Part shown: piece by piece, positions 1,987 to 62,315 of the stretch
How the letters are laid out: every line of letters starts with the position of its first letter
Numbering within the stretch: position 1 is the first letter of the stretch
Source: a virus
Length of the DNA stretch: 64,000 nucleotides
Reading direction: 5' to 3' (one strand)
Virus record (IMG/VR): IMGVR_UViG_2531839741_000003
Location: 3,238 to 67,237 of that record
Position numbers and translations under genes: made by a program
The notes under the pieces: generated by a model
Told to the model about the DNA's origin: nothing
Seen by the model: only the letters and a program-made list of their open reading frames with translations
Databases searched by the model: none

Positions 1987-1992
1987 CTTTAA

Positions 1993-4209: not shown

Positions 4210-4411
4210 TTTTAGTGAATATTTAGATTTGAATAAGCCGCCACCTCCTAAAAAGAAGTCAATGGGATTCGATTTCTCTATTGGAGATCCAATGGAGAAT
4301 TCATCCTTAACGGCGGTAGAAATAAAAGAAACAACATATAATCCATTTGTCTATCAATTGGACGAAGATATATTAATGGTGGCTGCTTTATATGGCGGGC
4401 CACTATATTAA
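4202..4411 (+). CDS. hypothetical protein
   Basis: ORF overlapping the ligase stop. Confidence 0.5.
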   Translation: MVDFSEYLDLNKPPPPKKKSMGFDFSIGDPMENSSLTAVEIKETTYNPFVYQLDEDILMVAALYGGPLY

Positions 4412-4414
4412 GGA

Positions 4415-4777: not shown

Positions 4778-4781
4778 GCTT

Positions 4782-28339: not shown

Positions 28340-28511
28340 TTTCCTATTGTTTCCGCTTGTTTGAACACTCTTTTTTTCGGCGGTGTCTTTGCCCTTAGTA
28401 CTCTTTAATTATATCACATTTGATCGCCGTTGTCAATACCCTTGAGTATAAAAAGTTTTCAACAATTTAGATTGTTTTTTGTGCAATATGCACAAGTGGA
28501 AATTTTAAGAA

Positions 28512-28581
28512 TGTTTCACGTGAAACACTCATTTCTTGAGTAAATAGCGAGAATTTTTTAAGAAATGTTTCACGTGAAACA
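28512..28581. promoter_or_regulatory. two perfect parS sites (28512-28527, 28566-28581)
   Basis: TGTTTCACGTGAAACA, the canonical ParB/Spo0J palindrome. Confidence 0.85.
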
Positions 28582-29083
28582 CTATTGAACAATTGAACAT
28601 ATATTCATATGAACAATTGAACATATGAACAATTGTTCAAGTGTTAGTTTATCCTAACTCCTACTAAACTAGTAGGAATTATAGGAGTTATTCAAGAATA
28701 ACTCCATTTACAATTTATTCACATTTATTCATATTCTATCCATATTTTTATTTTTACAATTTATTCATATTTGTTCATAGTTTATCCATATTTTTGTGTT
28801 CACAATTTATCTACAATTGTTAATACTTTATTCATATTTTTCTATTAACAATTTATTCATAGTTAGTCTAGACTAACTCAACCTTTCACCCCCCCATTAT
28901 ATTATACACCATTTAACTGAATTTGTCAATGGTCAAACTATACAAAAATTGGCGGCGAAAGAATAAAATTTTTGTGCAACTTGACGATGTCCGGTCAGAA
29001 GTTAGTCTAGACTAACTCCAAATCAAAAAAGAGTGGTAAAATTTACCACCCTCTTTGTTCATATTTGATTCACATTCAATTCA

Positions 29084-29425
29084 TTATTCTTTAATCTTGT
29101 ATCCATTGATCAAACGATTTCCATTCTTTACCTCGACAATTTCAACCCGTCCATTTTTTGCCAACTGTTTCATAATTGCAGTAGTTTTTTGCGGTGTGAT
29201 GTTCTGAGTTTGTCCAATTTGTGAAGCCGTGTAAATGGTGTCTGTTTCCATTTGTTCAATAATTTGTTCACCGATTTTCAAATTTTCCTGTTGTGTCTTG
29301 CTTAACGTTGTACGCCGTTTTTCGTTGCGTTCGTCCAGTTTTTGGATCTGTTGCGATGCATACGCCGTGATTTCCTCGTTGATGTTTGTGTTCACAATTA
29401 CTTCAAAAAATTCACGATTTGTCAT
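29084..29425 (-). CDS. small HTH-like protein, paralog of 17865
   Basis: MTNREFF...TASQIGQTQNITPQKTTAIMK. Confidence 0.7.
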   Translation of the reverse strand: MTNREFFEVIVNTNINEEITAYASQQIQKLDERNEKRRTTLSKTQQENLKIGEQIIEQMETDTIYTASQIGQTQNITPQKTTAIMKQLAKNGRVEIVEVKNGNRLINGYKIKE

Positions 29426-29580
29426 ATTATACCTACTTTCTAGAAATCGTTTTTAGGGTGATTTCTTATTCCCTTTACCTTACATATTTATTATATCATA
29501 TTCTTTTCTATTTGTCAAGCCTTTTATCTGATTTTTATTTGTAAACTTTTTATTAACCACCCGCCCGCCCTGTTTACAAA

Positions 29581-29964
29581 TTATTCACTTTTTGCCTTGG
29601 CAATTTTTGCTTCTTTTGCTTTTGCTTTTGACTCCTTTTCTGCTTGTTTTGTCGCTTGATCTTCGGCGAAAATGTCTGCTTCGGTCAGTCGTTCAAATGG
29701 TTCAAAAATTTTGCCTTTTGGTGTTACACGTCTATCAAAATTTTTTGCAACTGGTGCAGATGTAAAGCAAACTTCACCTTCTGTACCGTCTGAAAGTGTA
29801 CGATAACCAATGCAAACAGCGACTTCATTAGAACCCGTGATTGAAACGTTTTCTTCGCCGTATTCCATGCAAGCGGCTTTATACAAGAGATTGAAGCCGA
29901 TTTTTCTGACTTCGTTTTTTACTGCTGTAGCGGTCTTGAACTCGTCAAAATTTTTCATAGTCAT
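29581..29964 (-). CDS. hypothetical protein, 4-copy family
   Basis: Near-identical to 27095-27478. Confidence 0.8.
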   Translation of the reverse strand: MTMKNFDEFKTATAVKNEVRKIGFNLLYKAACMEYGEENVSITGSNEVAVCIGYRTLSDGTEGEVCFTSAPVAKNFDRRVTPKGKIFEPFERLTEADIFAEDQATKQAEKESKAKAKEAKIAKAKSE

Positions 29965-30395
29965 AAATACTCACTTTCTGAAAATCGTTTTTAGGGTGAT
30001 TTTCTTGTTCCTTTTACCTTACAATATTATTATATCACATTTCGCCGCCGTTGTCAAGCGATTTTTTGAAATTCGGCATATTGCACAAAATGTTTGAGTA
30101 TGTTGAAAACTTTTGTGCAAGTTGCGCAAGGCGGCCGGACTTATGCAATTTATACAAAAATGAACGCTTAAATTTGAAAATATTTGTATAATTTGACGAT
30201 TGACATTCTTCTTCTTTTGTAGTATAATATATATAGAACGAAACGCAAGAGGAAAGCCAAGAGAACGGCATAAAACAAATTGGAAAGTAGTTCAAAAAAT
30301 GTTTACAAATAAATACTTGACAAATGCTCTTGAATGTGATATAATAAGAGTATAGAAAAGAGAAAGAAACTCTTAAAAACTAGAAAGGCAAAATT

Positions 30396-30704
30396 ATGAA
30401 AAACGTAAATTTGGAAATGGTAGAACTTAATGAAAAAGAACTTGACGCAATGAAGAAAGAACTTTTAACAATTGACGAAACACTTCAAGCAATTCAAGAA
30501 CGCTTGACAACATCAGAATATAATGAAAGATGGTTTGAATATGCGGAAAAACTTTCACTTCAAATTATGGAAAAATACGGTGTAAAATATCCCTTGATTA
30601 TGGATGTTTCGGGATATGGTAACTATAATGCAATTGAAATTCTTTTCTTAAATGGTGAAAAAGGTTTTGACGGAATTCAAGTTGATTGCGGCGATATGGA
30701 ATAA
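30396..30704 (+). CDS. hypothetical protein
   Basis: Promoter plus GAAAGG. Confidence 0.6.
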   Translation: MKNVNLEMVELNEKELDAMKKELLTIDETLQAIQERLTTSEYNERWFEYAEKLSLQIMEKYGVKYPLIMDVSGYGNYNAIEILFLNGEKGFDGIQVDCGDME

Positions 30705-30976
30705 TAGAAAGGACTTGATAAAATGAAAGCAATAAAAAATTTAATTTTTTTGGTTAGTATTTTGTTTATGGTTTGGATCGTTGCAAGTTTTATAAATGTA
30801 AATCTGCATAACCTGACAGATCAAAATTTTGCAACGTGGAATTTGTTCACAATGTTCACAAATTGTTTACAATAAAAATTTTGGAAAGTACTTGACAACT
30901 GAAAAGAAATGTGTTATAATAAATACAGAAATTGAGGAGCGGAAAACCTCACTAAAACCGCAGAAAGGTTTATATT

Positions 30977-31189
30977 ATGACTGTTAGAAATATTTTAAGT
31001 ATGTGTAAAAATGATATTGATTATCTCAATGTTACGGTTGTAAATTCTGAAGGCGAAAGAAGTGAAATTATGAGTTTCCCTTTACTTGAATACATCGGTA
31101 CAGAATGGGCAAATCGTGAAGTAATTAGTTTTGAAATTAAAACTAATGAAGAATTAGATTTTACAGAAATTTATTTTGAAGTTAGATAA
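30977..31189 (+). CDS. hypothetical protein
   Basis: Promoter plus GAAAGG. Confidence 0.55.
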   Translation: MTVRNILSMCKNDIDYLNVTVVNSEGERSEIMSFPLLEYIGTEWANREVISFEIKTNEELDFTEIYFEVR

Positions 31190-31369
31190 AATATGAACGG
31201 CTAGTAACTTTGGCAAAAGCTGGAGTGAACGCCTTGTGCATATTGTACAAATTGAGACGCTTAAATTTGAAAATGTTTGTGCAACTTTTATATTGACATT
31301 TGGTTTCTGTTGTGGTATAATAATTATAGAAGTTAAGGAAAAAACTTAAAAACCAGAAAGGCAAGTATT

Positions 31370-31585
31370 ATGTTAGTAAAAGAATTGATTAAAAAGCAGG
31401 AAGGCAAGTTTGATAGTTTGGAAATTATTAGACCAAATGGAGACGTCTATTTTACTATGGTGGTACCCTATGAAAGAAGCGATGCTTTTCAAGAGAATAA
31501 AGACTTGAAAATTTTTAGTTATAGTTTTGTACCATTTGCAAGCGGTAACGGGTACAGATTGAGTATTAAAACAGAAAGAGTATAA
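31370..31585 (+). CDS. hypothetical protein
   Basis: Promoter plus GAAAGG. Confidence 0.55.
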   Translation: MLVKELIKKQEGKFDSLEIIRPNGDVYFTMVVPYERSDAFQENKDLKIFSYSFVPFASGNGYRLSIKTERV

Positions 31586-32043
31586 AACGGGTGCAAGAGA
31601 AATAAAAGTGAATAATAAAAGGGTTAGCGGGTGGGCGAAAATTTGAGAAAAGTTTTTCTGTTGAGACGGGTTCAGAAATTTTTCTAAAAGATTTTATATA
31701 TTACGGGTTTAGAAAAATTTTTGGGCTAAAGTTTTTAGATGTAAATAAATAATAAAATGAGCTAAAGTTTTTAAGAATAAAGCTATATTTCTAGCAAAGA
31801 GGTATCATATTTTCAAAGTGGTTCTTCTGCTTGATGGGGTGATAAAAATTTTTAGCAAAAGTTTTTCTAAAAAGTTAAAGAATAAAAATGAGCAAAAGTT
31901 TTATATAGATAGATATAATACAGTTTAATATATATACATATGTATATTGGAAATATGTCAAGATTTAGTATAGAGCAGGACAGCAGAAATTAACTGAAAC
32001 TTTGTTATAATTAAATAACTTCAATAGAATGAGCTGAAGTTTT

Positions 32044-32199
32044 AGCTCCAAAATTATAGCTTCAATATAGCTCAAAATTATAGCTTCAATATAGCTCAAA
32101 ACTATAGCTCAAAATTATAGCTTCAATATAGCTCAAAACTATAGCTCAAAACTATAGCTCAAAACTATAGCTCAAAACTATAGCTCAAAATTATAGCTT
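32044..32199. repeat. tandem array of 11-12-bp AGCTCAAAA(C/T)TAT and AGCTTCAATAT units
   Basis: Direct reading. Confidence 0.85.
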
Positions 32200-32511
32200 T
32201 AATTCTGTTGGACAGCGACAACAACAGAAGAGCGATTTCACCTCCTACCGCTCTTCTGTTCTACTGTCTTATTTATTTTCTACCGTGATACCCTCAATTT
32301 CAAGTGCTGCTTCGTTTGCCTGATCTCTATCGTCCCAAGCACCGTAGAACCAAAGTTCACCTTCAATTTCTCTTGCTACAATGTACTTTCTATTCTTTGC
32401 ATATTCTGCCATGTTATTGATTTTCATATTTCAATCTTCCTTTCATTATTGAAATTGAACCCGAACGGGATTTTTTCATCCCGTCCTTCCTGTTCAATTT
32501 TCTTGGTGGTT

Positions 32512-32945
32512 TCATTCTGTCACTTCGTAGAATACTGTTGCATTCTCAAACTTAATTTGCCATTCTCTACCGTTTTCGTCCGTCCAATCGCCTGCTTGTG
32601 TATGTGGTACGTTGTCTTTCTGCTCGTATCTTCTGATTAGGCTTTCAAACGCTTCACCCTTGTTACCTCTCATTCGTTCAAGGGTTTCAATTGTACCTAC
32701 CTTTTCGACTCTCGTACAACTGTTCAAGAGTGCCTCTCGTTGCTTGTTATTTGGTCGGAATCTCCATTTACAGCGACCGCCTTTTTTGGTGCTGTCACGG
32801 TCGCATTTTAGCGACGCTTGAAAAGCTTCATTGTCGTAGGTTGTAAAGCAAGCCCATATTTCACCCCCTTCTTGATGCCTATGATTAGGTTTTGCGTTGC
32901 GGTTGTTTTTCTGTATGCCATGAAGCTAGTCAACATTTTATTCAT
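32512..32945 (-). pseudogene. hypothetical gene with an apparent frameshift at a G5 run near 32865
   Basis: The ATG frame (MNKMLTSF...IKKG) stops early; a second frame (GEIWACF...FRPNNKQREALL...QIKFENAT) is open to 32512. Confidence 0.4.
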
Positions 32946-32948
32946 TTT

Positions 32949-33173
32949 TCAATCCTCCATGGTGTCCAGTCCGATGTAGCCGACTTCCAGACTCCAGCGA
33001 CAGAAATCTTCTAAATTTTCCATAATTTCCCATTCGCTGTAGTTTTCAAGTGTATAGTTTCCGTACCGCTCAAGGGCTGTTTCACGTGAAACATTTTCGA
33101 GGTTGATGGCAACCGCATTAAAGCGGTGACTTGTAGCGTTTTCGATGGTTTCAATTGCATTGTAAACAGTCAT
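32949..33173 (-). CDS. hypothetical protein containing the third parS (reads VSRET)
   Basis: ORF track. Confidence 0.5.
   Translation of the reverse strand: MTVYNAIETIENATSHRFNAVAINLENVSRETALERYGNYTLENYSEWEIMENLEDFCRWSLEVGYIGLDTMED
33078..33093. promoter_or_regulatory. perfect parS site
   Basis: TGTTTCACGTGAAACA. Confidence 0.8.
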
Positions 33174-33464
33174 GATATAACCTTTCTACGCCGTTTGGCG
33201 TTTCACTGTTTGCCGGTGCGATAACCCTTATTTCGGAGAATGGTTTTTAACCCGTCCTTCTATATAATATTATACTCCTTTTTTTTAGTTTGTCAAGGAT
33301 TTTTTCAAAAAAAAATACACAAACCTTTTCAACTTTACAAGCCTGTTTTTGTGCAAAATGACGAACGCCTATTTTCAACCATTTTCTGTCATCTGTTAAC
33401 ATTTCAGTCATAATTTCTGGTGTCATGGTAAAATATGTCATCTGTTAACATTTCAGTCATAATT

Positions 33465-34545
33465 TGAACTTTTCAACTTTTCAACGTTGAAAACTTTTCA
33501 ACTTTTCAACAATTCTGTTAAAAATTTAACAATCGCATTGCATCTGTTGAAAAGTTGAAAACTATGTTAAAAAGTTGAAAACTATGTTGAAAAGTTGAAA
33601 TGTTGAAAGCTTTACATTCAATTGTTGAAAAGTTGAAAGCTTTACATTCAATTGTTGAAAAGTTGAAAACTATTAACACTCAACTGTTGAAAAGTTGAAA
33701 CTGTTGAAAACTTTCAACAATCCTGTTAAAAATTTAACAATCGCATCCCACAAAAAGATTGAATTTATTCATAGTTTGTTCATAATTTGCTCCCCCAATT
33801 GTGGAAAACTTTTAACTTTTCAACAATTAAACTTTTCCACTTTTCAACGTTAAAAATTTTCAACTCTTCAACTGTTGAATTGTTGAAAACTTTCCACAAT
33901 TTGTTGAAAACTTTCAACTTTTCAACAAGTTAGTTATGACTAACTCCTCGGCCCTTCCTCGGCAGAACATACGAAATTGTTGAAAAGTTGAAAACTATGT
34001 TGAAACTGTTGAAAACTTTCAATTTTCCACTTTTCAACTGTTGAAAACTTATTCATAGTTTGTTCACAATTTCCTCGGCAATTGTTGAAAAGTTGAAAAC
34101 TATGTTGAAACTGTTGAAAACTTTCAACTTTTCAACAAGTTAGTCATGACTAACTCCCTGGCCCGCCACCCTTGAACAATTGAAATGTTGAAAAGTTGAA
34201 AACTTATTCATAGTTTGTTCACAATTTCCTCGGCAATTGTTGAAAAGTTGAAAAGTTGAGACGCAATTGTTGAAAAGTTGAAAACTCATTCATAAATCAT
34301 TCAATTTGTTAATAGTTTGTTCATAATTTCCTCGACAATTGTTGAAAACTATGTTGAAATGTTGAAAACTATTAACAATCTGAGTGTTGAAAAGTTGAAA
34401 ACTATGTTGAAAAGTTGAGACGGACTGTTGAAAACTTTCAACAACGCACAGTTTTCAACAGTTGAAAAGTTGAAATGTTGAAAGTTTTCCACAAATTGTT
34501 GAAAGTTTTCAACTTTTCCACAGGGGGTGGAAAAATTTCTAATTT
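33465..34545. repeat. dense array of (T)GTTGAAAA/TTTTCAAC(A) in both orientations; candidate origin
   Basis: Dozens of copies, longer duplicated blocks and TTTCCACA variants. Confidence 0.85.
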
Positions 34546-34689
34546 TGTTCATAATTTGTTCATAAAAAGGCCGTACCAACAAATCTTCAGAACTCATTTT
34601 TTAAATTTAAATATCAATCATTGGTACTAACAAATCTTCAGAACTCATTTTTAAATTTAAATATCAATTATCAGTACTAACAAATCTTC

Positions 34690-35049
34690 TTAAAAAATCT
34701 CACTTACCCTATCATAATCTTCTCTATTTGCATATACTCCTAAAAATATTATTCCATTTATATTTTCCGTTAATTCTATTTTAGACATTTCCCATACATT
34801 TACTTCTAAATCTAATTCTTCTGCTTCATCTATTGTTAATAAACTTACTTTTGATTCTACAATATCATCTTTATCATAGATTAGATATAAACATAGGTGA
34901 GTTATATTGTTTTCTCTTAACTTAGGCAAAAAATCTTTTAATTTAAGTCCATTTCTTTTTAAAAAATTATAATATTCCATATAATCTTCTATTCCTATAA
35001 GTGATTGTCTTTTTATTCCATTTTCTGGTCCATAACCTAAAATTTCCAT
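34690..35049 (-). CDS. hypothetical protein
   Basis: AAGGAGG RBS on the minus strand; promoter near 35165-35200. Confidence 0.65.
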   Translation of the reverse strand: MEILGYGPENGIKRQSLIGIEDYMEYYNFLKRNGLKLKDFLPKLRENNITHLCLYLIYDKDDIVESKVSLLTIDEAEELDLEVNVWEMSKIELTENINGIIFLGVYANREDYDRVSEIF

Positions 35050-35509
35050 TGGTATTTCCTCCTTAATAGTTAGTAGTAGTTAGTAGTAGTAGTTATTAAT
35101 TAGTAGTTAGTAATTAATAACAATTAATAAAGAAAATAGAGAACTCTATTAATCTCTATTTTCTAATTATATTATACCATAAAATTTCTTTAAAGTCAAA
35201 TTTTTATTATTAAAATCGAAAATTTGACTTCTTAAGAAAAATATGCTATAATTATATTATAGAGAGAAATAAAGTAGTAAATAAGTATATAAACTATTAT
35301 ATTTTAATAATAGAGAAAGCCGCGATAGCGGATTTCAAAAATTTTAATTGGTCGAGCGTTAGCTCAAACGATTACAAATTTTTAAGGGGAATCGAGCCAA
35401 AAGAAACGTATTAAGAGAACGGCGGCGAAGCATTGTATTTTGGAATTGTAGTTAGTAGTAGTAATATAATAGTTTATTACTTTTCTCTTGTTTGACAATT
35501 GTAAAGGAG

Positions 35510-38108: not shown

Positions 38109-40508
38109 ATGATATTAATGCCCGAAGCTATCGCCGCCGCAACAACGAGATTATTCAAAACAAGAGGAAAAACATTTTATAGAAATGGAATTCAATTGGA
38201 AAAAGGTGCAGTAATTAATGAGAATAGAATAAGATATAATTTAGATTTGTATGAATATTATTTTGATTTATTCAGCCAATATCCAGATATATTTATTGAA
38301 TTGATTACTCCAACTGATTCAAAATTTAAACTTAAATTTTTCTAGGTTATTTTTCTAAGAGCTTGTCTACGTTATGGTCGTGTATCAGCTACTATGCCCC
38401 GTGCGGCTGGCAAGTCTTTTATTTGTATTTTAGCACTTTATTTGATTTGTATTTTTAGACCTAGGTCACACGTCAAGAAGGGCGCACTTATATTGTGAAG
38501 TGTAAGTGAAAAGATTAATTAAAAGCTGGGAAATTCTAATACTATTGATACTCGTTGCGCCGCCGCAATTTACTTAAGGCATTTTCATTGTGCAAATGGC
38601 GGCGAAGAGTTGTGAAAACAGAAACAAATTAATAGTTGGCTCATGGTTAAATCCTAAAAGCTGTGATAATGAATAATCAGCACCAAAAAGATTAAAAGAA
38701 TCTTGGTTCAACGACTATTCCCTTGAGGAAGTAGGTAATACCGAAAAATTAATCGTCTTAGTAATAAGAATTGATATAGTCTAAAAGCTTTTTATGTTCA
38801 CCTGGTCGAAATCAGGGCGTTAAAATTGCAACAGAAAAAATTAAACAACTATTTAATATTTTTCCTTTGTTAAAAAATGAATTAGTGGGAAATGGTAATT
38901 TTTCGAATGATTATGTTAAGTTGACATTTAGAAATGGCTCATTATTCGATGTAATGACGCCATTAAACTCCACTCGTGGTAATCGTGCTACGTGTGGTAT
39001 TATAGATGAACATCGTTAGATAGCGATGTAAAAACTGCCTAAATTGCGGGAACGCCCTTAGAGCTTTAATAACTAAACAATTATAGTGATATAATTGCGG
39101 CAAGGTATAACGGCTTTGGTATAGTAATATAATTAAAGATTGGGTAATCAAATGCAGCAAATCTTCTCTTGAGAAGAATGTTCAGAGACTATGTAGTAAG
39201 ACTTCGGTCTGAAAAAGGCAGCATATTTTTATATGATGATATAGTCCAATCCCTAAATAAATATGTCGAAAGACAGGGTTCTAAATGGATCACAACGCAG
39301 ACGATATCAATGAGATCATTCTGCCTTTACTCAACGTTGACCGCCCTATGGTCAATGGAGACATAAATGAGAATGAACCTCAACAGGTTCAATTCTGGAT
39401 TTCGTCAGCGGGAGATAAAAATACATATAGTTATGATAAGACAATTGAATTATTTGAACAATAGATAATCTAGCCAAGTAAAGTGTTTTGCTTTGGAATG
39501 GATTATAGAATTCCAATTATTTCAGGATTATTAACACCAGCATACTTGAATGAAATTAAATTGTCACCGACCTTTAATGAAATAAGCTTTGCAAAAGAAT
39601 ATATGTCCCGATTTACTGGTGGCTCACAAGATGCTTGGTTTGATTTCGAGAAACTGGATTAGAATAGAACATTGATTAATCCTGAGACTCATGAGAACCT
39701 TAAACCTGGCATCAACGCATACTATGTCATTTCAGTGGATGTGGCTCGCATAGGATGTTAGACGGTTGCCACTGTACTCAAGGTATTTCCTGATATAGAA
39801 AATGGATATAGAATTAATTTGGTAAACATATACGTACTCGGTAAAACGGAAGAGGAAAAAATCTTTGACAGATAGGTTGCAGAGCTTAAGTACTTGATAG
39901 AGCAATTCAACCCTAAGGTCGTGATCATAGATATAAATGGCATCGGAATTTCCTTTGCAGATGCAATGATTAAAGAGACTTTTGACGAAAAATTTCAAGT
40001 AATGCGCCCAGCTTACGGCTTTAATAATAGAGAGGAATATTTACCTCTACAACCTCGTGGCTGTGAGAAGATTCTTTATGGAATTAAAGCAAATGCGCAA
40101 CTTAATAGCGATATGCACTCTGCTTTATATTCAAAAGTCTATTCTGGCAAGCTTAAATTTTTAATTTCAGAAAGTGATGCAAAAGTTAAACTTCTTGCAA
40201 CTAAAAAAGGGCAAAGAATGAGTCCTGAGGATAAGAATAAACGCCTATTACCTCATGAAATTACCTCTATTTTAATTAATGAAATTATGAATTTAAAACT
40301 CAAGCCAACAGGCAATGCAAATCAGATTGCTGTTGAACAAATTAATGAACGGACATTAAAAGACAAGTTCTCTGCACTGGAGATGGGGATTTATTGGATA
40401 GTACAAGAGGAAAACACTTTAATGTCTCGCCGCCGCAATAGAGGTTTAGGTGGTAAAAAAAGAACCTTAGTATTTTCCGGTAGAGGAGGTGGAGGTGATA
40501 AAAGATGA
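38109..40508 (+). CDS. terL: terminase large subunit; exons 38109-38473, 38788-39016, 39288-40508; 6 TAG
   Basis: Spliced: KFF(Q)VIFLR, PRAAGKS (Walker A), CGIIDEHR|DH (Walker B), nuclease SVDVAR, IDINGIG, KDKFSA. Confidence 0.88.
38474..38787 (+). ncRNA. group I intron 1 of terL
   Basis: AAGCTGGGAAA, AATCAGCA, GTTCAACGACTA, GATATAGTCT; removal restores RPRSHV-FLCSPG; 3' boundary inferred from frame, P9 appears absent. Confidence 0.75.
39017..39287 (+). ncRNA. group I intron 2 of terL
   Basis: P1 ACATCGT/GCGATGT with U-G; AATTGCGGGAA, GTTCAGAGACTA, GATATAGTCC; ends in G. Confidence 0.88.
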
Positions 40509-48688: not shown

Positions 48689-48705
48689 AAATTTAATAAA
48701 GGAGG

Positions 48706-51700
48706 TTGATGATTATGGCACAAAACCTTTTTGAAAAATACGGCATTAAGGAAGTTGCTGATGTGTGGCTTTCTCGTATTGAACGGAAAGAAGAAACTTA
48801 TGAATCTCAAAGAAAGATTCCTGTATCTTCTATTCTAAAAAGCGCATTGACCTTAGAGACTGTTTATCCTCTTGATACAGATGGTAAGGGTGCAGATGAG
48901 GGCTATGAAGCTTATGTGTTTAAGGATGCCGATGTGCTGACTCATTATAATTATGATTGTGATGATGAAGTTACGGTTATTGGTAAGGGTTATGTTCTTG
49001 ATGTTCCAGGCGAGGAACCAGAAGCTCAAACTGATGCTGATACTGGTGAAGTAATTAGTGATTATCCTACTAAAGCTGAAAGCTATTATTCAGACTCAGA
49101 TGCTTTTACAGAAGCTTATACCAATAGTATTTTGACAATTAATTCTGCTTATGATAAAAATTCATTAAGAAATATTCTTTCTTCTGTTAAAGCTTACTTA
49201 GCTGGTACAGATTATGAAATCAGTGAAGTTACAATTTCAGATGTTACGATTTCTAATAGTTATAATACTTCTAGTACTTTAGATGGTAATGCTAGTGTAG
49301 ATGGATCAACTTTAATTACTTATGTATCATATCTAAAGTCCGCATATAGTGATGCTACAACTTTAGACACTCAGGGGAATGAAGTTTCTTATCCCCCAGA
49401 AATCTATTTTACGGTTGCAAAATCTGATGCTTACAACTGGGTAGCAGTAAGAGCTGCTATTGCAGAGTATCTATTATCTATTGACGCAAGCGAAGGTTAT
49501 GGTATCGATATTGATGAAACGGACGTTTATGGAATTTATACTGTTCCTAAATCTACAACTGAAGAATCTACTTCTACAGCCCTGACAACTGTTGATGTTT
49601 CAGCTATTAATATTGATTTTACCTATACAGACGGCGATGGTAATTCAATTAGTGTGAATTTGTCATATAGTGATGAAGAATATCTATCGGTTGCTTTGCC
49701 TACAAGTGTTGTAGAATATTTGACTGGTGCATCAGCTACTGAACCTGATGCAGAAGATGTTGTTGCGGCACTAGAAATTCTTTATAATACAGATGGTGTT
49801 ACAGTAACTCCTGAGGATGTGACAGATTCAGAAAATTAGACACTTTCAGAAGATTACGAAGATGGCGATGAACTATCGATTGATTTTTCATATATAGAAG
49901 GCTTTAATTATACTATCGTTCCTATGGATGATGATAGCTATGAAAGTGGTACTTTTATCCTTACTATCGTTCTATATCCGATTTATAGCTTTAATTATGA
50001 GATTGTTTTTGCGTCTGCCGAAGAAGCTCTTACGGGTATTTTTGATGTAACTACTGAATCACCTGATAACGCAACTGGAAATACAGGTCATTACGTAACC
50101 GATCCAGATTATGCAGATCAAGGTACTCATGAATTCACCTATGCAGAACAAGTTTGCTTAATCTTTGCAAAAGCACAGAATCTAATTACTAAACGTGGTA
50201 CTCGTTATCAGTTTACCGATGCAAACACCACCTTTAGTGACATTGAATTCAGTGATGAATTTGCAGCGGCACCTAACTCTTCAGAAAGAGTTGTGGTTGC
50301 TGGTTTAGCAGATAAAATTTCTGAAAATCTATATGATTTGGATGAAATTAATGAATACATTAAAACTCAACTAACTGATACAATTGATGCGAAAGCTTAT
50401 GATATTGTATATACCGATTATGCAGAGCTTGTTGTTGAGGATGAGATGGGTTACTATTTACCACAGCAACTTGGTACTTACAATAGAACAACTAAGAAAA
50501 TGGAATTCTTTGGTGATGGCGGCTATACTGCATATGCAACTGCACTAAAGGGTGTAGATATTGGTATTAGTACGGCAGTTAGTACTTGGGGTAATGATAA
50601 GCATTATAGTATTAATGACGCAATTGACGCTTTGAAGCAAGAAAAACGAGTTATCGATGGCGAAGTTGATCTTGGTACTGTTGGATTTGAAAGAATCTTT
50701 GGCGGCTACAAGGTACTTGGTGCTGATGATGGCGAGAAAGAAAAAGCTGGTCTACCATTCAATGATGGACAGGGCGTTTATGGATACGAAGTTAATGGCG
50801 AAGCAGTAACAAGTGTAATTGATGATTCTGCTGTATATAGCGGTTATCCTCTTGATTCTGTACTAGAAGCAATTGCATCTATGGAATCTCAGATTGAGGG
50901 GGCGCACTTACGTGTTAATAATGACTTCTTAATTCAGTCCAATAGAGCAATTTACGTTGATGCAGCATCTGCTTCTACATCTGCGCGCGCTCATATTTAC
51001 TTGCTAAGAAATATCAATGCTAAGAAACTTACATCTGATTCTGCTGGTATTTTCGAATTCTATGATAAGAAGGGCAATAAGCTTCATTATCAAGATAGAA
51101 TCTTTGCTGGCACAGAATATCTAGCACTTGTTACCATTGGTCAGTCTGGTCTAATCTTTGTTGTTGAAAGACACGGAACAAAGAATATTGATAAGATCGC
51201 TTGGATGGTAAGTGACGGTGGCTTCTTAACAAATAAACAAGCTGAGAAGATTGTTGCTAATGGTCTAATCCATACAGTAGATGTTACAGTATGTGACGAA
51301 TCCTTTGATGCAACTTGCACAGTAGGTTCTATCAAGATTCGTAAGACCAAGAAGAGCGTTCTTCACTATGTTCCAGTTCTTTATTTAGATACTCTTAAGG
51401 TTAGTACAATTGAGCAAGCCGCTGAAACAGTAGATGCTACTGGTGGTCGTGGCAATGCTAAACTAATTACTTGGGACTTCAGTAAAGAAATCACACTATC
51501 TATTGAAGATGCATTATTTACACCAGCATCTATGGCTGCTATTTGGGGCGGCGAACATGGTGATGTTAAGAATGGCGTTAAGGATACACATCACATTGAT
51601 AGAATGGAAAAGATCACTGCTAAGAGAAGCTTCATTGTACCAGCAGGTAATAGCCTAGGTACTCCTACTGAAGGCGATATTACTGCTCAGGCTGTTTACT

Positions 51701-52763
51701 ATGATCCTCAGACAATGGAACCATTCCAAGATGGTACTCCAATTGCAGAGGGCGAAGTGATTTATAAGTTTACACGTTCTGTAGCTTATGATGATAATAG
51801 TATTGGTAATACAATTGAAATTTCTGCGGAGAAATTCCCTGGTACTTATCGTGTAGTAGGCGAGACTTATGTACGTGATAAGAAGACTGGTGAAGATCAG
51901 AGATTCCAGTTCGTTATTCCAGAGGCTAAACATTTGGTCGCTTAAGTGGAAACATTTAAGGCAATAATTAATTAATTGCTGGGAAAACTTAGGTCAAATA
52001 AACCACAACGCAGTCAGGAATGGCATTCGTGAAGGTTTGAAAATTATTTGATAGTAGAGTTAATCAGCAGCGCGGCGACAGCAATCGCAACGTTCAACGA
52101 CTATTCCGAGAGGAAGTAGAGGTTAAGTAATCTCGAAATATTAAATACCTGAAAAGGTAAAGATATAGTCTTATCATTTGCGGTGACGCAAAGTTCTAGA
52201 CAAAGTAATACGAATACTTTGAAAAAATAAATGAAAATGTCAGCAGAAGATACATCCATTACGCTTGAAGCGGATGGAGATCCAGTCGTAAACAGTAAAA
52301 TCAAATGCGACTGTAAAATTGCTTAATTGCTGGGAACTCCTTAGAGCTAATAAAACTACAACATAATCTGAAAAGATAAGTGTGAATGTTAAAAATTTAT
52401 TAGATTGGACAATCAGCAGCGTAGTACCTTAAAGGGTAAACGTTCAACGACTATTCCGTAAGGAAGTAGAAGTTAAATAACTTCGATGTGACAATTACTG
52501 AAAAGTAAAGATATAGTCTGAACTTCTATTGAAAGATAGAGATATAACAAAATTGGTTTGACTTTACAATGGATGTCCTTCGTCCAGACGATGGCGTAAT
52601 GATGAAGTTCATTCAGTTTGATACAGTAGAAAACGAAGAAGAGAACGATGGTTCTACAATGGTTAAGGATACTGAAAACCTCAACCTACTTGACGATGCA
52701 GAAATGTATAAGATTAGTAGTGATACAGAGGAAGACCTAGCTATTGGTGCTACTGAATATTAA
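48706..52763 (+). CDS. tail-tube-like paralog A; exons 48706-51927, 52234-52289, 52556-52763; 1 TAG
   Basis: YGIKEVADV, PVLYLDTLKVST, ITWDFSKEI..EDALF, FPGTYRVVGETY, and after splicing TLEADGDPVVFDFTMDVL; structural role inferred from position. Confidence 0.7.
51928..52233 (+). ncRNA. group I intron 1 of paralog A
   Basis: P1 GGCTAA/TTGGTC with U-G; AATTGCTGGGAA, AATCAGCAGCG, GTTCAACGACTA, GATATAGTCT; ends in G. Confidence 0.85.
52290..52555 (+). ncRNA. group I intron 2 of paralog A
   Basis: P1 CAGTCGT/GCGACTG with U-G; same core motifs; ends in G. Confidence 0.88.
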
Positions 52764-52854
52764 TAGATATAAAATAAGGTAAAATGGTAAGTTGCAGCCA
52801 TTGGCGATCTAATGGTCCAATGGCTGCTTTTACTTATCATAATTAAATACGGAG

Positions 52855-55035
52855 GTGAATGGAATAATGAATTTATTTGATCAATATGGTATTAAAGAAG
52901 TCGCTGACGTAACAATCTATAGTATTCATAAGAAAGAAGATGGTAGCGGCGAAACATATTATATGCCAGCCTTGTATCTTGATACTTTAAAAGTTACTAC
53001 AACTGAAAAGACTGCTGAAAATACTTGGGCACAGGGCGGCCTAGGCAATTCTCGTTTGATTTCTTGGGATTATTCAAAGGAAATTAATATGACTCTTGAA
53101 GATGCTCTTTGTACTCCTGCTTCACTTGGTCTATGCTGGGGCGGCGTATTGAGTTCTGATTGGAAAGATGCGCAAGTTAATCACCAGTATGGAATTACTG
53201 ATAGTGGTTGTGGCACTGAAAGAATTTCAAGAATGGAAAAATGCTTCTATCCTAGAAATGATATGGCAAATGCTACTGTTAGTTCTTTACTCCCTCGTGA
53301 TGGAAAAGAAGACATTGCAGAAGATTGGAATGGCGATTTAGCTTACTTAACTCGTTCTTCTGTTCTTGATGGTACAGTAGTAAAAGGTTTTGGTTATGTA
53401 GATAGTCATCCTTATAAATGGCATTTAGAGATTGAAACTGCTGTTAAGTCTGTGGCTGTAGTTCCAGATAGATTCTATTCTACTCTTGGAAAAGGATATC
53501 CGATTAAGAAATTCCAGACTGTAGGGATTAATCAGCCCTCAGAGTCTTTTAAATATGAGATAATTTATAGACGTGGTGCAGATAACTATCCTTTTGAAGC
53601 TCCAAAAGCTAAAATTATTTATAATAGACAAGCAGCAGAAGAAGGAGAAAAAACCTTAGCCTGCTGGGATCAACTTGAAGCAATTTCTATGTTAGATGAT
53701 ATGGTAACATATCCTTTCTTAAAGATCAGGGTTTGTCTTGACGGTTCAATTAAAGCATATCTTGGTACTGAATCTGTTGATTGGGATTTGGAACGTACCA
53801 TTGACGAAACTGTAGCTGATGCTGATAAATACTGGGTAGAAAATCCATATATTAATACTGAGCAATTTAGATATATTGATATGTGGGAACGATTTGATAG
53901 CATTAATGCTCTTTCTTATTATTTAATTACTAAATATGAGGAGAATATTTATTCTATTGGTCCGAAAGATATTAAACCAGGTATCCCATTAAATACATAT
54001 ACTGGAATTACCTATTATACCGTACCATCAGGCAGTTATAGTTTTGTAATAAAAGAAGGACAGGTTGTTAATATAGAAGTGTATGATTATGGTACTGATT
54101 CAGATACAATGGATGAAACAACAGCAAATGATGTTATTAATAAAGTTCCTGAAGATTTAACAGTTACCTTCACGTTGACAGAAGATTTGAATGTTCCAGC
54201 GAACAGTGAGAAAGAAGCTATATATATTGCATTTTTGTATGCATATGGTGCCGTAGATATTGAGAGCGTAACTGATGATTCTAATATTACTTATTATACG
54301 ATTACTAAAAACTCTAGTGCAGATAACTGCGTAGTAGATAGTACATCTGAAGAAGTGACTTACAATGTTGGCGTTTTATCTGTTTAGTTTAATGAGATTG
54401 ATAGTAGTAGCATTACAACCACGGGTGTCACACAAACAAACGTTAGAGCAGGTGACGCGCATGTTGGATTAGGCGACCCAAGCAATCCTACAAATGGTGT
54501 AGTTGGCTTAGATTATGACTTAACAGATTCAAACCTCGCTATTGATAGTGGAACCTGTGTTCCGTGTTGTAAGAAAGCTAATTTAAGTCGTGCAATTTGG
54601 GCATATGTAAATCCTAGAACAATGTCTCCTTATGATGATGATTATTGGTTCCATCAAGGTGAGCCATATCTTAAGAAATCACTATCATTAAGTGCTAAGA
54701 ATTCTAAGCTCAAAGCTCAGAAAATTGTTGTCAACACTGGAGAGTTCCCTGGCATGTATAAGATTGTAGGTGAGACTTATATTAGATCTCGTGAAACAGG
54801 TGAGGATGAACGTGTTCAACTATCATTCCCATTATGTAAAATTAAGTCTGACCAAACACTAACGCTTGAAGCAGATGGTGACCCAACAACCTTTAATCTA
54901 GATGTTGAAGTTGCTGTGCCGCCAAATGGTGTTGCAATGGAAATTACATTTTACGATGTTGAAAAGGAAATGACTTCAAGTTGCAATGGTAGTAGAGTTG
55001 AAAAGGATGGTTCAACACGAGTAAGTGCGCAGTAA
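52855..55035 (+). CDS. tail-tube-like paralog B, 1 TAG
   Basis: ORFs 52855 and 54622 are in frame across TAG 54385; same conserved blocks. Confidence 0.7.
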
Positions 55036-55050
55036 GGGAGGTGACGTTAG

Positions 55051-57174
55051 ATGAATATATTTCAGCAATATGGTATTAAAGAAGTAGCTGATGTCTGCCT
55101 TTATGCAATTGAACTCGATGAAAACGACGATGAAGTTTATGTACCAGTCCTTTATTTAGATACGTTAAAAGTTTCTACTGTTGAGGAAACGGCTGAATCT
55201 GTATCTGCACAAGGAGGATTAGGTAATCCAAAACTAATTACTTGGGATTTTGGAAAAGAGATAACTGTAACTCTAGAAGATGCCCTCTATTCTCCTGCTT
55301 CTCAAGGAATGACTTGGGGCGGCACTATGGGCACAAAGACTCTTAAACTCTATTTAAGAAATTTCTTTGATAGAGGAACAGATAGCAAGAACCCAAATGC
55401 AAACTTACGTGGTGCTGTTCTAACGCTTGAAACATTTTCAGATTTCTGTGAGATTCCTGATAGATGGCCAACTTATGAATTAAAAGGTTCACAAAGTGAC
55501 TAGAATACTACTGGTTACGTTGGCGGCACATCAATTTACTGCTGGCTTACTAGTGGTAATATTGTTTCTAATGATGGGAAGAAAAGGGTATATGTTGAAG
55601 ATTTGATTCTGTTTTTTAGAGAACAAACTTAGAAATGGTATTTTTACAATGGTAAAGGACCGGTTGAAGATGTTGATGGATATATTGATACAATAGAGGA
55701 TCCTTATTATATCAACGTCCAGTATGGTCGTGAAGCTTTTGAATGGATTCGTGATAATTTAAGCGGCGATAATATGGATAAGTGGCAAAAATATCTTGCT
55801 GGCACTTGGTCAGATGGTGGCATTCCAACTATGACTGATACAGAGACAAATGGTGTTGCTGATCCTTATAATTAGGATACAGAATCTAATTATCGTTGGA
55901 CAGAGTATGAGGATGTTGCAAAACAAACCATTGCTGATTGGGTAGAGGATGCACCTTGCGAAGAATATGATAGAGGACCAATATATAATGTAATGGGCGC
56001 AGATTTAATTTTCTTAACACAGAATTTATATATCGATGGATATAGAACAGATAAGTGCGCACGTAATAGACTCTATAGTGAATTAACTGAAAGTGAAGAA
56101 TCACTAGTTGAAACTGCTGGATATCAACCATATCGTTATAACGCATCTGTCGATGTAGTTTATAATACGAATATTGCGCCGCCGCAAGAAGTTATCTATC
56201 AAATTGACCATGATTTAGATAATGTAGTTTATCTTGATAGAATTGAAAAATGTAAAGCTTCATCTAGATTCTGTATTGATACTGATGTTAATATGAAACA
56301 CGGTAATTATCGTTATATGGAAAAATATGCAAATACTGAGCTAACAGTATTTATAGACCCTAAGACAATGCAACCATATGAACCTAATACCGCAGAATAT
56401 TATCGCAGAAATGGTCAACGTATCACAGGTAACTTACGTGCTTTTAAGCAATATGAAGTTTATTATAAATGGACTCGTACAAAAGCATATGAACATACTA
56501 CTTTGGGCAAGCAAATTGTTGTTGATGCAACTCACTTCCCTGGTACTTATAGATTAGTTGGTGAAACTTATTCTAGAAGTCGTAAGACGGGTAAGGATTA
56601 GAGATTCCAGTTTGAGATTCCATTGTGCAAGATGGGTACTGAAAACAGTTTTACCCTTCAAGCTGATGGCGATCCAACAACATTTACAATGACTTTAACT
56701 GCAATGCGTCGTGCCGATGGAGTTATGATGAAGTTGACACAGTATGATGTTGCAGAGAAGAAATATGGTAAATATGCTAGTGGTAGTACTGAAATTACTC
56801 CTTATGATAGTACTTATGAACCAACTGATGAAGAGTTAGATGAGCAGAATGTTTCTTATACTTCTAGTGAGAGTACGACTACAAGTTCAAAAATTGTTAG
56901 CTTAGAGATTGTTGAACCTGAAGAAGGGACAGTTTATAGCTTATCTAATGGGGAGGATTCATTAACTAAGAATTCTGGTGAAGGTGACAATGATAAAATG
57001 ACAATTGAAGTCGCTGCCACAGGACAAGTAACAACTACAACATCAACAACATGGACTCGTGATGAGGATTTAGATGAACCTGTTTCCTTTAGCTCAACTT
57101 CATCGTCAACATCTGCATAGACAATCTATTTGGATGCCGATGAGTATGAAGCAACTCTAGAACCAGTAACATAA
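55051..57174 (+). CDS. tail-tube-like paralog C, 5 TAG
   Basis: Joins ORFs 55051, 55993 and 56623; TAA 57174. Confidence 0.7.
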
Positions 57175-57187
57175 AAGAGGTGATTAA

Positions 57188-59371
57188 ATGAACATTTTCA
57201 ATCAATACGGTATAAAGGAAGTCGCAGATGTTACTTTCTATTCAATTACCAGAGTTGGAGATGAAGAATTTTATACACCTGTTTTATTTTTTGATACATT
57301 GAAGGTTTCCACTGTTAAAAAGACAGTGAAGACAGTCAATGCTACAGGAGGAAAAGGAAACGGTAAAGTTATATCGTGGAACTTCGGTAAAGAGATTACT
57401 TTATCTTTAGAAGATGCTTTATTTTCAGATGCATCGTTAGATATGTTCTTAAATGGACGAATATAGACAAAATTAGCTGATTGGACTTCTGTAATTGCAA
57501 AGCTTAATACAGCAAACAAATATGGTAGATTACACTATTCAACTAAAGCTTATCCTTCGCCGCAATTGACAATGAGTGAATGGGAGATCGTTTTTAGATG
57601 CGCAGAGAAAGCTGGTTATAGTGCAAAGTATGGAGACGCAGGATTGACTTTAGACGCCAGTGATAATAAAGAATATTCATATAGATATTAGTATGATACC
57701 ATTCGTGGTGATAAAGAAGGCGATTAGTTTGTCGCTGAGAATAGAAAATATCTGACACAAAAATATATGAATAGAAATCAATTGTCGCCGCAATCAAGAA
57801 ATGTTGCATATTTTTATGATATAAACGATGGATATTCTGGTGTTGACATAAGAATTGTTGATGAGAAAGTTGATACAGATTTTACTGAAAGTGTTGAGAC
57901 TGGAGGAACAAAAATCTATATAGAATCGTCAAATTCTTGGTACACAGAGGAGGCTGCGGCTGAATATATAAAAGCAAGAATTGATAATGCCGCAACTAAT
58001 AATACCGTTGAAACATTAGTACTGAAAAAGAATATTTACGTACGTTATGTTTAGAATGGAAGTATTTGCTACAGAACAGGAACAATAACTGCTTGGATTA
58101 GTATAACAGCGCAAGGTTTTTACTGCCGAGCAACTTATTTAGAATTTTCTAATTCAACTGATGTTTTGAATAATCCTTACTGCGGCCGTGACACGTTTAA
58201 TGACCATATATTCTACTATTTATTCCCAAACTATTTAGGAACTATAATAGATTTGTGCTATTGCGACTTGCAAGATAAATTCTATCTTGCTATGCCGCCG
58301 ATAGTAATAAATGAAATTGTTAAAGAGATTGATTCAGTTCATAAGATTGGAAAAATTGAAAACGATCTCTATGACAGTTAGTATATAGATAGATTTGAAA
58401 AGTGCGTTGTTACAAATAGAGATGGATTTACAATTGATGCTGGATAGCAAAGAGAAAATCTAGTAAAGTATTATAATAATGTTACAGATGAGAGCTATAC
58501 AATTTATTATGATGCTAAGACAATGTTGCCTTTGTTTACTGGTGAGAATTTTAATATTGAACCTTATACAAAGCAATATATTAAAAATACTGAATCAATT
58601 GAAATTACTGATTCAACTGTTTTATTGAGTATTTCCAAGTCAATTGAAGAAAAAAGTGCTTGCTACTATGATTTTCCATATCAAGTTGCTTATCAAATAG
58701 CATTAGTTGGTATTGATTTGATTAGTCTAATAGGCAATTCAATTGCTGATTGGGTGGCGGCGCAAGTTGAAGATTTTGATCATTTGGAAGATATAATCTT
58801 TATTGGTGGTCTAGATGAAAATGGATTGCCAGTAGGAATTACTGTTGAAACAGATGGATATACAATTACGAAAATTACTTTTGACACTAATTCATTATTA
58901 ATCAAATATGTTCAAAAGAATCCAAATCTATTTAAAATTAAACGCAATACAATTTATTATAAATGGACACGTACTGTAGATGAAGCTGGTAGTATTTTTA
59001 CAACAATTGGTACGGATTTAATAATCAGCGCAGATACGTTTCCAAGTGAATATAGAATTGTTGGAGAGACTTATATAAGAGAGCAAAAAACGGGAAAAGA
59101 TTAGCGATGTCAAATCGTATTTCCTCGAGCAAAAATTTCTCCAGCAACAGATATTAAATTACAAGCTGACGGTGACCCCGTTACTTTTTCAATAGATGTA
59201 AATATCTTAATGCCGAAAGATAAAGTAATGATGGAATTAAGATAGTTCGATGTAGAAGAGGATAAGAGAGAGGGCGGCTTTAGAATTATACCTCAAGATA
59301 AACGATACTCTTATACTCCTACAAATCAGGAATACGTTGATACTGTTATTGATAACAACGAGATTTATTAA
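57188..59371 (+). CDS. tail-tube-like paralog D, multiple TAG
   Basis: Joins ORFs 57188, 57767, 58166 and 58523; ends EIY TAA. Confidence 0.7.
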
Positions 59372-59384
59372 GGAGGTGAAAGAG

Positions 59385-61310
59385 TTGAATTTATTTGAAA
59401 AATATGGTATTAAGGAAGTTGCTGATGTTGTGTTCTATTCAATGAATTAGGTTGGCGATGATGAGATTGTTTATACTCCTGTTCTTTACTTAGATACATT
59501 AAAAGTTTCCATTTATGAAAAAACTGCTGAGAGTGTTTTTGCTACTGGTGGTTTAAAGAATAAGAATTTGATTAAGTGGAATTTTGGAAAATCAGTTCAA
59601 TTGACATTAGAAGATGCGTTGTTCTCGCCAGCGTCTATGAGTATGATATGGGGCGGCAAGTTAGATAGTACTTTTAGTGATGCAACTTCTTTAGTAGCAA
59701 AAATTAATTATGCAAATGTATATGGTAGATTGAGGTATTCTACTAAAGCTTATCCTTCGCCGCAATTAACTAATGATGAATGGAATATTGTATTTAAAAT
59801 TATTCAAAATAAGCTTGAAGGAACTACTTTGGATATTTTAGATAATGATGTTGCTAATACATTAGATGATGATTTGAAAACTGCTTTTATTAATAGATAT
59901 TATGATAGACCTGTTCTATTTGATGGTGTCAATGATGTTGGCAGTGATACTGGGAAAAATGACTTATCTCAACCTTGGACTTATACCTACGACTTAGAGA
60001 ATTTTGGTACTTACTTTGGCGCCAATTACTTAAGTGTTTCACAATTGAATTTAGAAGGGTATGAGAATATAAATGATCATTATGACGATAATGGCGTGCT
60101 TAAAGTTGGACATTATCGGTGGTATTCAGCTAAAGCAATGCCTGAGTATGTTATTTATATTATTAGAAATTCACTGAAAGAATTGAGTGATATTGGTAAT
60201 ATAAAAACTAATATTGGTGAAGTTGAAGTTGTAGATAGAATGGAAAAGTGTTTGGTAACTAAGAGAGATGGATTTAAAATTAGTACTAAAGAACAGCTTG
60301 ATAATCTATTTAGATATTATGCGGATGATAGAAGTGAAACTTATAGTATTTATTATGATGCTAAAACTATGTTACCACTGCTTCATATTGAGGATGATGA
60401 AATTTAGGGATATAATTTAGAGAAGTTTTGGGAAACATCAACTTTGGTAAGTGAAAATAGGTATGATTATGGTAATTATTAGGAACTAGACGTTTATAGT
60501 TCTTATTCAAAATTATACTAGTACTTATTATATTTAATTTCAACATGGGATTCATCATCTCTTGGAGATAGTTCTTCAAAGGGTTATACAGTAACATTTT
60601 CTTTAGATAATGTTTATACTTATACTTTAGCATCTGCTTCGAGTGGAATTAATATTTCGTAGAATTCTATTTTGGATTATGAAGTTTTATATGAGATATT
60701 AGCTTCAATAGCAACAAATCGTGTTTTAACAAAAGAGCCAGATTATTATTTGCCACGTAGTGTCAGCTTGCTTTTGAATTATAGTACTGAAAATGGATGG
60801 TCAGCATTTGTTAGAGCAATTGGTTTACGAGAAAACGATTTTTCTTGGATGAATGATATTTTCAAAATCAAATTCGGTACTGTCTATTACAAATGGACAC
60901 GAACTGTAAAGTATCAAGAATACGAAGATGATGCGGTTCTTGGTTCTTGCTTTACAATTGATGCGGATACATTCCCAGATGATTATAAAATAGTTGGAGA
61001 AACCTACATACGAAATCAAAAAACAGGTAAAGACCAGCGATATCAAATCACAATTTTTAAAGCAAATGTATCATCAGATACTTCAATAACTTTATAGGCA
61101 GACGGAGATCCAACGACATTCTCTATGACAATAGATGTGTTGGTTCCAGAGAATGACATAATGATGGAGATGATTCAACTAGACACAGAAGAAGATCGTT
61201 TCCAAGGTGGTACAAGAATTTTGCCGCAAAAGACAAAACTTACTTATACACCAGCAATGGAAGATTATGGAGACATTATTACACCTATAGACAACAACGA
61301 AATTTATTAA
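59385..61310 (+). CDS. tail-tube-like paralog E, multiple TAG
   Basis: TTG 59385 after AGGAGG, NLFEKYGIKEVADV; joins ORFs 59568, 60672 and 61125. Confidence 0.7.
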
Positions 61311-61418
61311 TAATAAAGGAGGGCGAATTCTTGACAAGATTTGCCCTCTTGATTTTATAAAATAAAGTAGTGTTTTAATTACATTGATTATAGAATTGAA
61401 ATGAATGGAGATGTTAAG

Positions 61419-62315
61419 ATGGATAGATATGTTGGTATGAAAGAATTGTACGATGTTAATATTAGATTGAACTAGCCGCTTGAAGTCGGCAAGAGGAAAT
61501 ATGATATTAATGAGACAATTCTTAGTTTTAAGACTGCTGAGATTGCATAGCTTTAGGAAAGTAGAAGCTTAAAAACTGCAAGGGGTGGTTTTAATAATAA
61601 TGTACTTTTAGATTGGGAAATTGATAAAGAGGTTTCATTTGCAATAACTAATGGAATTTTATCTCCTTTATCTTTAGCGATGTTAAGTAATTCTAAAATA
61701 AATGAGAGATAGAATAAATCTATTTCTTTTTAGGAGGAAGTCAATGTTATTGAAGATGATGGATATTGGTTTGCTGATCTAAAATATATACCAAATCATG
61801 TTGATGGCAAATGGGGAGTACAGGGTAATCCAGATGGAGAACAATTACCAATGGGTAGAAAGCCTTGGATACTTTTGAAACCTTTGCCGCCATGCCGTGA
61901 TAGATTTATATTCTGTTATGATGTTGAGACAGGCAATAGAATAATGAATTTTGATATAGTTGAGAATAGAGTTATTTTTAAAGCTGAACATAGGAGAGTA
62001 ATGGTTGATTATACTTTTGATTATGATGATGGTGTTAGAGAGCTTGATGTGGGGAATAGACTATTTAATGGATGGATGAGTTTAGCTGGGAAAATGACTG
62101 CAAAGGATTATGGGAATGGAGAATCGAGGACTGTTTTATTAGAGATTCCGAGATTAAGATTGAGCAGTAATTTGGCGCTTAAGTTGGGAAGTGGATATGA
62201 GAGTGCTGTTACTAGTGATTTTTATTTTACTGGGTATCCTGAGGAAGGTAGAAATAATGGGAGTGTTTGCAAGATTACGTTTTTGGAGACGGAGTTGAGT
62301 GGTGAGTATTTATGA
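61419..62315 (+). CDS. divergent tail-tube-like paralog F, multiple TAG
   Basis: GMKELYDV and ARGGFNN..LLDWEIDKEVSF resemble GIKEVADV and ATGG.GN.KLITWDFSKEI. Confidence 0.55.

Follow-up and report, generated by a model that had tools for sequence, protein, structure and literature searches.

Two predicted group I introns around a 56-nt micro-exon in a tail-tube gene of a phage with TAG-containing late genes

The 64,000-nt stretch of phage DNA analysed here (the window) carries six tandem paralogs, A to F, at positions 48715-62315, all of which match phrog_2729, the tail tube or major tail protein family. Their products comprise 1,158 (A), 726 (B), 707 (C), 727 (D), 638 (E) and 304 (F) amino acids. 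Relatives of the paralogs recovered by tblastn include gp211 of Izhevsk ("tail tube protein"), the "major tail protein" of Skywalker and ORF136 of 949, and over both of its exon junctions the spliced product of gene A aligns with tail tube proteins from Lactococcus phage 949 and Bacillus phage Izhevsk, which are 235-247 aa long. The family profile matches the solved tail tube proteins 8k98_A and 9jgh_A (E = 1e-4). In Pfam no match was obtained for A, its orthologue or paralog F; the homologues carry the precomputed label PF27173. On the basis of these comparisons, gene A is assigned as a siphovirus-type tail tube (major tail) protein gene, one of six tandem paralogs. Large unrelated inserts were observed in five of the six copies of this otherwise single-copy tail tube family, and six distinct subunits raise the idea that the tube ring could be a hetero-hexamer.

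All in-frame stops within paralogs B-E are TAG, and the late region resolves into long ORFs when TAG is read as a residue. Since two of the gene A orthologues described below (L016 and L017) have TAG where six others have CAG (in a ..R-F-Q-F.. motif near the match end), this residue would be glutamine, and the phage is predicted to read TAG as glutamine in its late genes. Gene A itself contains one such codon (49837-49839). Throughout the late genes (35492-64000) TAG codons are numerous in frame and other stops are absent from the frames; in the neighbouring stretch at 28339-35492 long ORFs are very scarce, even when TAG is taken as glutamine. A suppressor tRNA was not found in the assembly by ARAGORN, from which a candidate, described further below, is hidden by an intron.

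Gene A extends from 48715 to 52763, its ATG lying 9 nt 3' of an AGGAGG motif (48700-48705), and encodes the 1,158-aa product once both introns are taken out. Its parts and immediate surroundings are as follows.

48715-51927, plus strand: exon 1 of tail-tube paralog A, 1,071 codons from the ATG at 48715
51924-51939, plus strand: P1 of intron 1, GGCUAA paired with UUGGUC, with a U51927.G51936 wobble at the 5' splice site
51928-52233, plus strand: group I intron 1, 306 nt, no ORF; RF00028 69.3 bits, fold z = -4.65
51943-51945, plus strand: in-frame TAA in intron 1 ending unspliced translation (..EAKHLVA-stop)
52234-52289, plus strand: exon 2, a 56-nt micro-exon of 18 codons plus 2 bases
52283-52313, plus strand: P1 of intron 2, CAGUCGU (52283-52289) with GCGACUG (52307-52313), 7 bp ending in U52289.G52307
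52290-52555, plus strand: group I intron 2, 266 nt, no ORF, no P2; RF00028 66 bits
52324-52326, plus strand: in-frame TAA reached if intron 2 is retained, 12 extra residues after ..GDPV
52556-52763, plus strand: exon 3, last tube-domain strands and conserved acidic tail ..IGATEY; stop TAA at 52761-52763
52794-52835, plus strand: GC-rich 11-bp hairpin followed by a U-run, directly 3' of gene A; -27.1 kcal/mol, z = -5.4

The first tube strand (..YGIKEVADV) is located at the N-terminus of the product and is followed by about 1,000 variable residues and then by the remaining domain. In exon 1 alone, residues 484-668 match positions 23-207 of the 252 positions of phrog_2729, while the match of an intron-less, contiguous orthologue reaches positions 22-247. 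Exon 2, whose translation agrees with the 18 residues (plus 2 bases) given by the first-pass annotation, codes for the turn between two conserved strands and includes invariant K, M, E, A, G and P columns. Both junctions fall inside the most conserved stretch of the tail-tube family, i.e., among invariant alignment columns, and conserved stretches of host genes are where group I introns usually sit. The placement of the junctions in strands is given with low confidence; the AlphaFold2 model of the orthologous C-domain (pLDDT 47) was too poor to serve in a fold search. The hairpin at 52794-52835 is likely an intrinsic terminator or attenuator, which the consensus scan missed because of its 12-nt loop. 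A second strong hairpin with a U-run was observed 3' of paralog E (61317-61350), and the paralog array may be transcriptionally subdivided.

Both introns were detected with the Rfam covariance model RF00028 (group I intron; gathering score 50), which was run over the whole window and the whole assembly. Two matches lie in gene A; they are full-length, on the plus strand and came up in both runs, at 51918-52193 with 69.3 bits (E 1.7e-15) and at 52250-52541 with 66 bits (E 1.6e-14). No match falls in paralogs B-F, in agreement with the earlier proposal that only this paralog is interrupted. The intron ends were set by hand from P1/P10 pairing with the Rfam alignment, local folds and reading of the sequence, and RF00028 matches, pairing and orthologue junctions all led to the coordinates 51928-52233 and 52290-52555 that had been proposed from the bare sequence. 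Each intron ends in G (G52233 and G52555, respectively).

In intron 1, the model comprises P1, an 8-bp P2 with a GAAA loop (51941-51960), an extended P5, P7.1/P7.2, P8, P9 and a further 3' hairpin. Its P1 is weak, with four exon base pairs and -3.7 kcal/mol, and P10 could form between CAUUU (51931-51935) and the first bases of exon 2 over 3-5 bp, with an uncertainty of one base in the register. Junction 1 may slide by 1-3 bases and still give the same mRNA, since A's stand first on either side; the rules of a U at position -1 and a terminal G pick 51927/52233. For intron 2, P10 is formed by UCAAAU (52301-52306) and GUUUGA (52556-52561, the start of exon 3) over 6 bp. Rfam had placed the P1 of this intron in a chance hairpin of exon 2 (52254-52275), which was overruled by the 7-bp U.G-ended P1, P10 and the orthologue junctions, all pointing to 52289/52290. 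Other 3' ends were rejected as well: G52193 for intron 1 leads to an immediate stop, and for intron 2 G52541 yields an unrelated 18-aa tail and G52556 breaks the frame.

Group I introns have a conserved catalytic core, P3-P8 with the guanosine site of P7 and J8/7; from this core, the P7 strands GACUA/UAGUC and the AAGAUAUAGUC segment of both introns align to the RF00028 model. When the two introns are folded jointly, P7, P7.1, P7.2, P8 and P9 emerge with nine compensatory pairs, and in both a 33-nt insert between P7 and P3' folds as two hairpins (P7.1 and P7.2). Hairpins P7.1 and P7.2 at this position mark group I introns of subgroup IA, a criterion reportedly going back to Michel and Westhof in 1990, and both introns are subgroup-IA-like. 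On the plus strand, neither contains an ORF of at least 40 aa, the criterion applied for a homing endonuclease, and a free-standing gene between A and B was likewise absent.

Comparative evidence on the junctions came from orthologues, which were searched for in viral contigs with the C-domain of exon 1 as query and, in addition, in metagenome loci. A 122.7-kb contig (L012) carries an orthologue of 85% identity as one uninterrupted, intron-less ORF of 1,130 aa (1466-4855) free of RF00028 matches, whose DNA reads ..ATT CCT GAA GCT AAG ATG.. and ..CCT GTA GTA TTC.. across the two junctions. Seven metagenome loci (L013-L019, 83-88% identity) are likewise intron-less at both junctions. All eight loci (L012-L019, 83-88% aa identity) equal the predicted ligated exons base for base, and the orthologue protein runs ..IPEA|KM..GDPV(V)|F.. 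across them. Hence the expectation that splicing restores the C-terminal block was borne out, and the block is also contiguous in paralogs B, D and E. Among 11 further orthologous protein fragments, nine run contiguously over both junctions. Of the remaining two, one ends before junction 1 is reached and the other shortly after it, a few residues into the part encoded by exon 2; both appear to be gene calls truncated by a TAG codon or by the end of a contig. Short homologues were also considered as exon-1-only gene calls, indicating introns elsewhere, and none of the 11 fragments read was of this kind.

Comparison with the same orthologues revealed that exons 2 and 3 contain neither stop nor frameshift and evolve under strong purifying selection, with dN/dS of 0.03-0.1 at saturated synonymous change. 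Exon 2 differs from the orthologues by 7-11 synonymous and 2-4 non-synonymous changes, and the changes in exons 2-3 that are private to the window comprise 13 synonymous and 7 non-synonymous ones. The low dN/dS and the private synonymous excess therefore argue that both exons are still translated in the predicted frame. These data bear on the view that the introns are dead relics which no longer splice, so that gene A would end at 51945 and exons 2-3 would be decaying remnants. Such a state could be tolerated, as the five other paralogs could cover the function, and the weak P1 of intron 1 would fit it. Against it stand, besides the selection on the exons, the intron cores, which are intact and score above the Rfam cut-off, and the helices of both introns, which were kept via compensatory changes; we consider this explanation extremely improbable. 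A co-conversion tract, i.e., a divergence peak near the junctions, was not seen: identity is 0.70-0.82 throughout, with synonymous sites saturated.

What incomplete splicing would produce follows from the reading frames. Unspliced RNA is predicted to add five residues before the TAA at 51943, ending at 51945 as previously noted, retention of intron 2 adds twelve before the TAA at 52324, and skipping of exon 2 shifts the frame, as had been anticipated, and gives ..EA followed by a single Val and TGA. All of these truncated forms would lack the invariant columns K216, M217 ... F235 and V241-R243 (alignment numbering) and would probably not fold. Moreover, pairing between the intron 1 guide and exon 3 is poor (-1.8 kcal/mol). 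Since the invariant C-terminal residues are missing and this pairing is poor, the incomplete forms appear to be by-products rather than programmed isoforms. Programmed alternative splicing, in which a truncated A isoform (unspliced, intron-2-retained or exon-2-skipped) has its own role in tail assembly, could draw on the fact that all three forms end at early stops after 1-12 extra residues, and skipping of exons through group I introns is reported for Twort orf142 and a Bastillevirinae polymerase gene. Yet the guide pairing is unlike that of Twort, the missing family columns speak for products that probably do not fold, and every orthologue manages without introns, which makes this option very unlikely. 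With respect to the truncated isoforms proposed by the first-pass annotation, the arithmetic of early stops was thus right, while their production in quantity or their use found no support.

The origin of the two introns was approached via their relatives. The nine RF00028 matches of the whole assembly include four on this contig. Among these introns, 1 and 2 are most closely related to each other: they share 66-67% identity, whereas neither exceeds 57% with any of the other seven. A search of IMG/VR with a 38-nt core pattern found no very close intron relatives; a 25-nt core motif common to both introns is widespread in viral contigs (at least 118 loci). Three of the IMG/VR contigs reached through this motif (L063, L084 and L106) encode distant tail-tube homologues, with about 30% protein identity to A and several group I introns each. 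One of these introns belongs to the family of intron 2, is 63% identical to it, likewise lacks P2, and occupies the position of intron 2, namely phase 2 of the codon that precedes the invariant Phe after G-D-P. It was located as follows.

L063, 1399-1709: intron at the site equivalent to that of intron 2
L084, 2614-3036: intron at the site equivalent to that of intron 2
L106, 1980-2252 (minus strand): intron at the site equivalent to that of intron 2

The P1 (CUUCCAC/GUGGAAG) and P10 (GCUGAAU/AUUCAGC) of this intron co-vary with their own, different exons, and this covariation of exon and guide therefore provides independent support for the P1/P10 pairing scheme. At its 5' splice site there appears to be a C-G pair instead of the near-universal U.G (exon end ..UCCAC, guide GUGGAAG). 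The genes of L063, L084 and L106 differ from gene A in having further introns elsewhere and none at the site of intron 1, and L084 harbors twin introns around a 17-nt micro-exon. Together, this suggests that intron 2 sits at an established site and that intron 1 is its sister copy, at a position where no other intron was seen.

The comparisons further point to a recent gain of both introns in this lineage: in a sample of about 20 relatives, all orthologues were without both introns, and the 122.7-kb relative has no RF00028 match above the cut-off at all. Repeated loss in the relatives would be the alternative to recent gain.

Further group I matches were observed outside gene A. One, at 10439-10635, scored 62 bits in the genome search and escaped the whole-window gathering scan. 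It is contained in a tRNA-like gene (10393-10658) that has the anticodon loop CUA and directly follows a TnpB/IS605-type transposase ORF (9483-10343, phrog_506). The large terminase gene (38109-40505) is split into an N-part (phrog_15503) and a C-part (phrog_24618), with a sub-threshold RF00028 match at 38965-39268 between the halves. Five additional matches are found on two other small contigs, C47 (16295-16515, 24611-24916, 25138-25391) and C4 (1912-2108, 11064-11258), which may be pieces of the same phage.

The distribution of these matches leads to a reading in which the introns act as a splicing gate. With an amber-suppressor tRNA and a terminase gene that are both split by introns, late morphogenesis would hang on ribozymes and so on GTP, Mg2+ and ongoing translation. 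It could build on the RF00028 matches in the tRNA-like gene with its CUA anticodon loop (10439-10635) and between the terL halves (38965-39268), and the idea of phage introns as a "molecular switch" has been discussed (PMC11878797). However, selfish invasion of conserved sequences predicts the same pattern equally well, and a close relative does without any of these introns above the cut-off, which would make such a gate dispensable; we regard it as decidedly unlikely. A broader proposal combines ectopic spread from the G-D-P-x-x^Phe site to a copy 56 nt upstream with a late programme (suppressor tRNA, terminase, tube paralog A) dependent on at least five ORF-less ribozymes as physiological gate on morphogenesis; as a whole, it seems unlikely to us.

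We instead favor, with a probability of roughly 0.9, that gene A contains two ORF-less IA-like group I introns which are self-excised to join exons 1-2-3 into the message for a 1,158-aa tube protein, the introns being recent selfish passengers and the truncated forms useless. After transcription, each intron would fold; in P1 its guide would pair with the last bases of the upstream exon and in P10 with the first bases of the downstream exon, and the intron would then excise itself by two guanosine-initiated transesterifications. The joined exons would then serve as mRNA for the full-length protein with its C-terminal strands and acidic tail intact. On unspliced RNA, the early TAA codon of intron 1 would stop ribosomes, as would that of intron 2 where it is retained, and partly spliced or exon-skipped RNAs would give just truncated, probably non-folding products. 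The introns themselves would have been acquired recently by this lineage as selfish passengers. The self-splicing, the recent gain and the uselessness of the truncated forms are here predicted from sequence.

The closest known parallel is orf142 of phage Twort, encoding the tail tube protein TmpA, for which three group I introns and exon skipping were described (Landthaler and Shub, 1999, as cited in PMC11878797 and PMC3073962). In the Twort records, the orf142 CDS is joined from four pieces, adjoins the sheath gene and is annotated as tail tube protein; Rfam detects three introns in it. From AF132670.1 we derived exons of 345/41/23/20 nt and introns of 325/252/286 nt, giving 142 aa without stops, and the core of intron 1 of gene A is 76.7% identical over 89 nt to one of the orf142 introns. 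In both systems, several ORF-less group I introns that are related to one another cluster at the 3' end of a tail tube gene, with micro-exons between them (41 and 23 nt in Twort). They differ in that the Twort protein is a 142-aa, single-copy tube protein of a myovirus, whereas gene A encodes a 1,158-aa siphovirus-type protein, one of six, in a TAG-recoded phage. Twort introns 2 and 3 have the same 5' exon ends, while the guides of gene A differ and skipping should be less favored; in addition, splicing is demonstrated for Twort and predicted from the sequence for gene A.

Further examples come from other phage groups. In Bacillus cereus-group prophages, group I introns occur in the tail tube gene and at three tape-measure sites (PMC2504315), comparable to gene A with regard to the tail structural genes, the Firmicutes siphophage background and the patchy distribution among relatives. 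There, however, one intron is reported per site, and for the tail tube gene no pair of introns flanking a micro-exon is described. The crAss-like Delta and Zeta groups carry many group I introns along with TAG or TGA reassignment, with capsid genes in up to five pieces (PMC7886860), and Jug phages average 18.5 introns per genome, splicing of 37 of their 76 predicted introns being backed by metatranscriptome reads (PMC12880540). Like the present phage, both combine group I introns in core virion or packaging genes with stop-codon recoding, but they represent other lineages with other host genes, and many of their introns contain endonuclease ORFs. In Enterococcus phage EF1, a terminase gene of the family found in the present phage is interrupted by three introns lying close together, one of which adjoins an HNH gene.

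Consequently, the general statement that phage group I introns are mostly found in nucleotide-metabolism, replication, terminase and lysin genes proved incomplete, since tail-tube, tape-measure and capsid cases are documented, and the unusualness of the present locus had been overstated because Twort orf142 and the studies PMC2504315 and PMC7886860 document such host genes. The arrangement is not new in kind, having had a precedent in Twort since 1999, and represents a well-documented further example.

Under the standard code, gene A shows as three or four unrelated ORFs, and gene callers miss such cases. The locus provides an exactly delimited phage intron pair with a micro-exon, verified by comparison, and extends the Twort precedent by a siphovirus-type, stop-codon-recoded case. 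The case of gene A leaves the understanding of how such introns work unchanged. It reveals one codon position of the tail-tube family as a recurrent intron site, with a guide that co-varies with the exon, and this could offer a way to examine how group I introns lacking an ORF reach or retain their positions.
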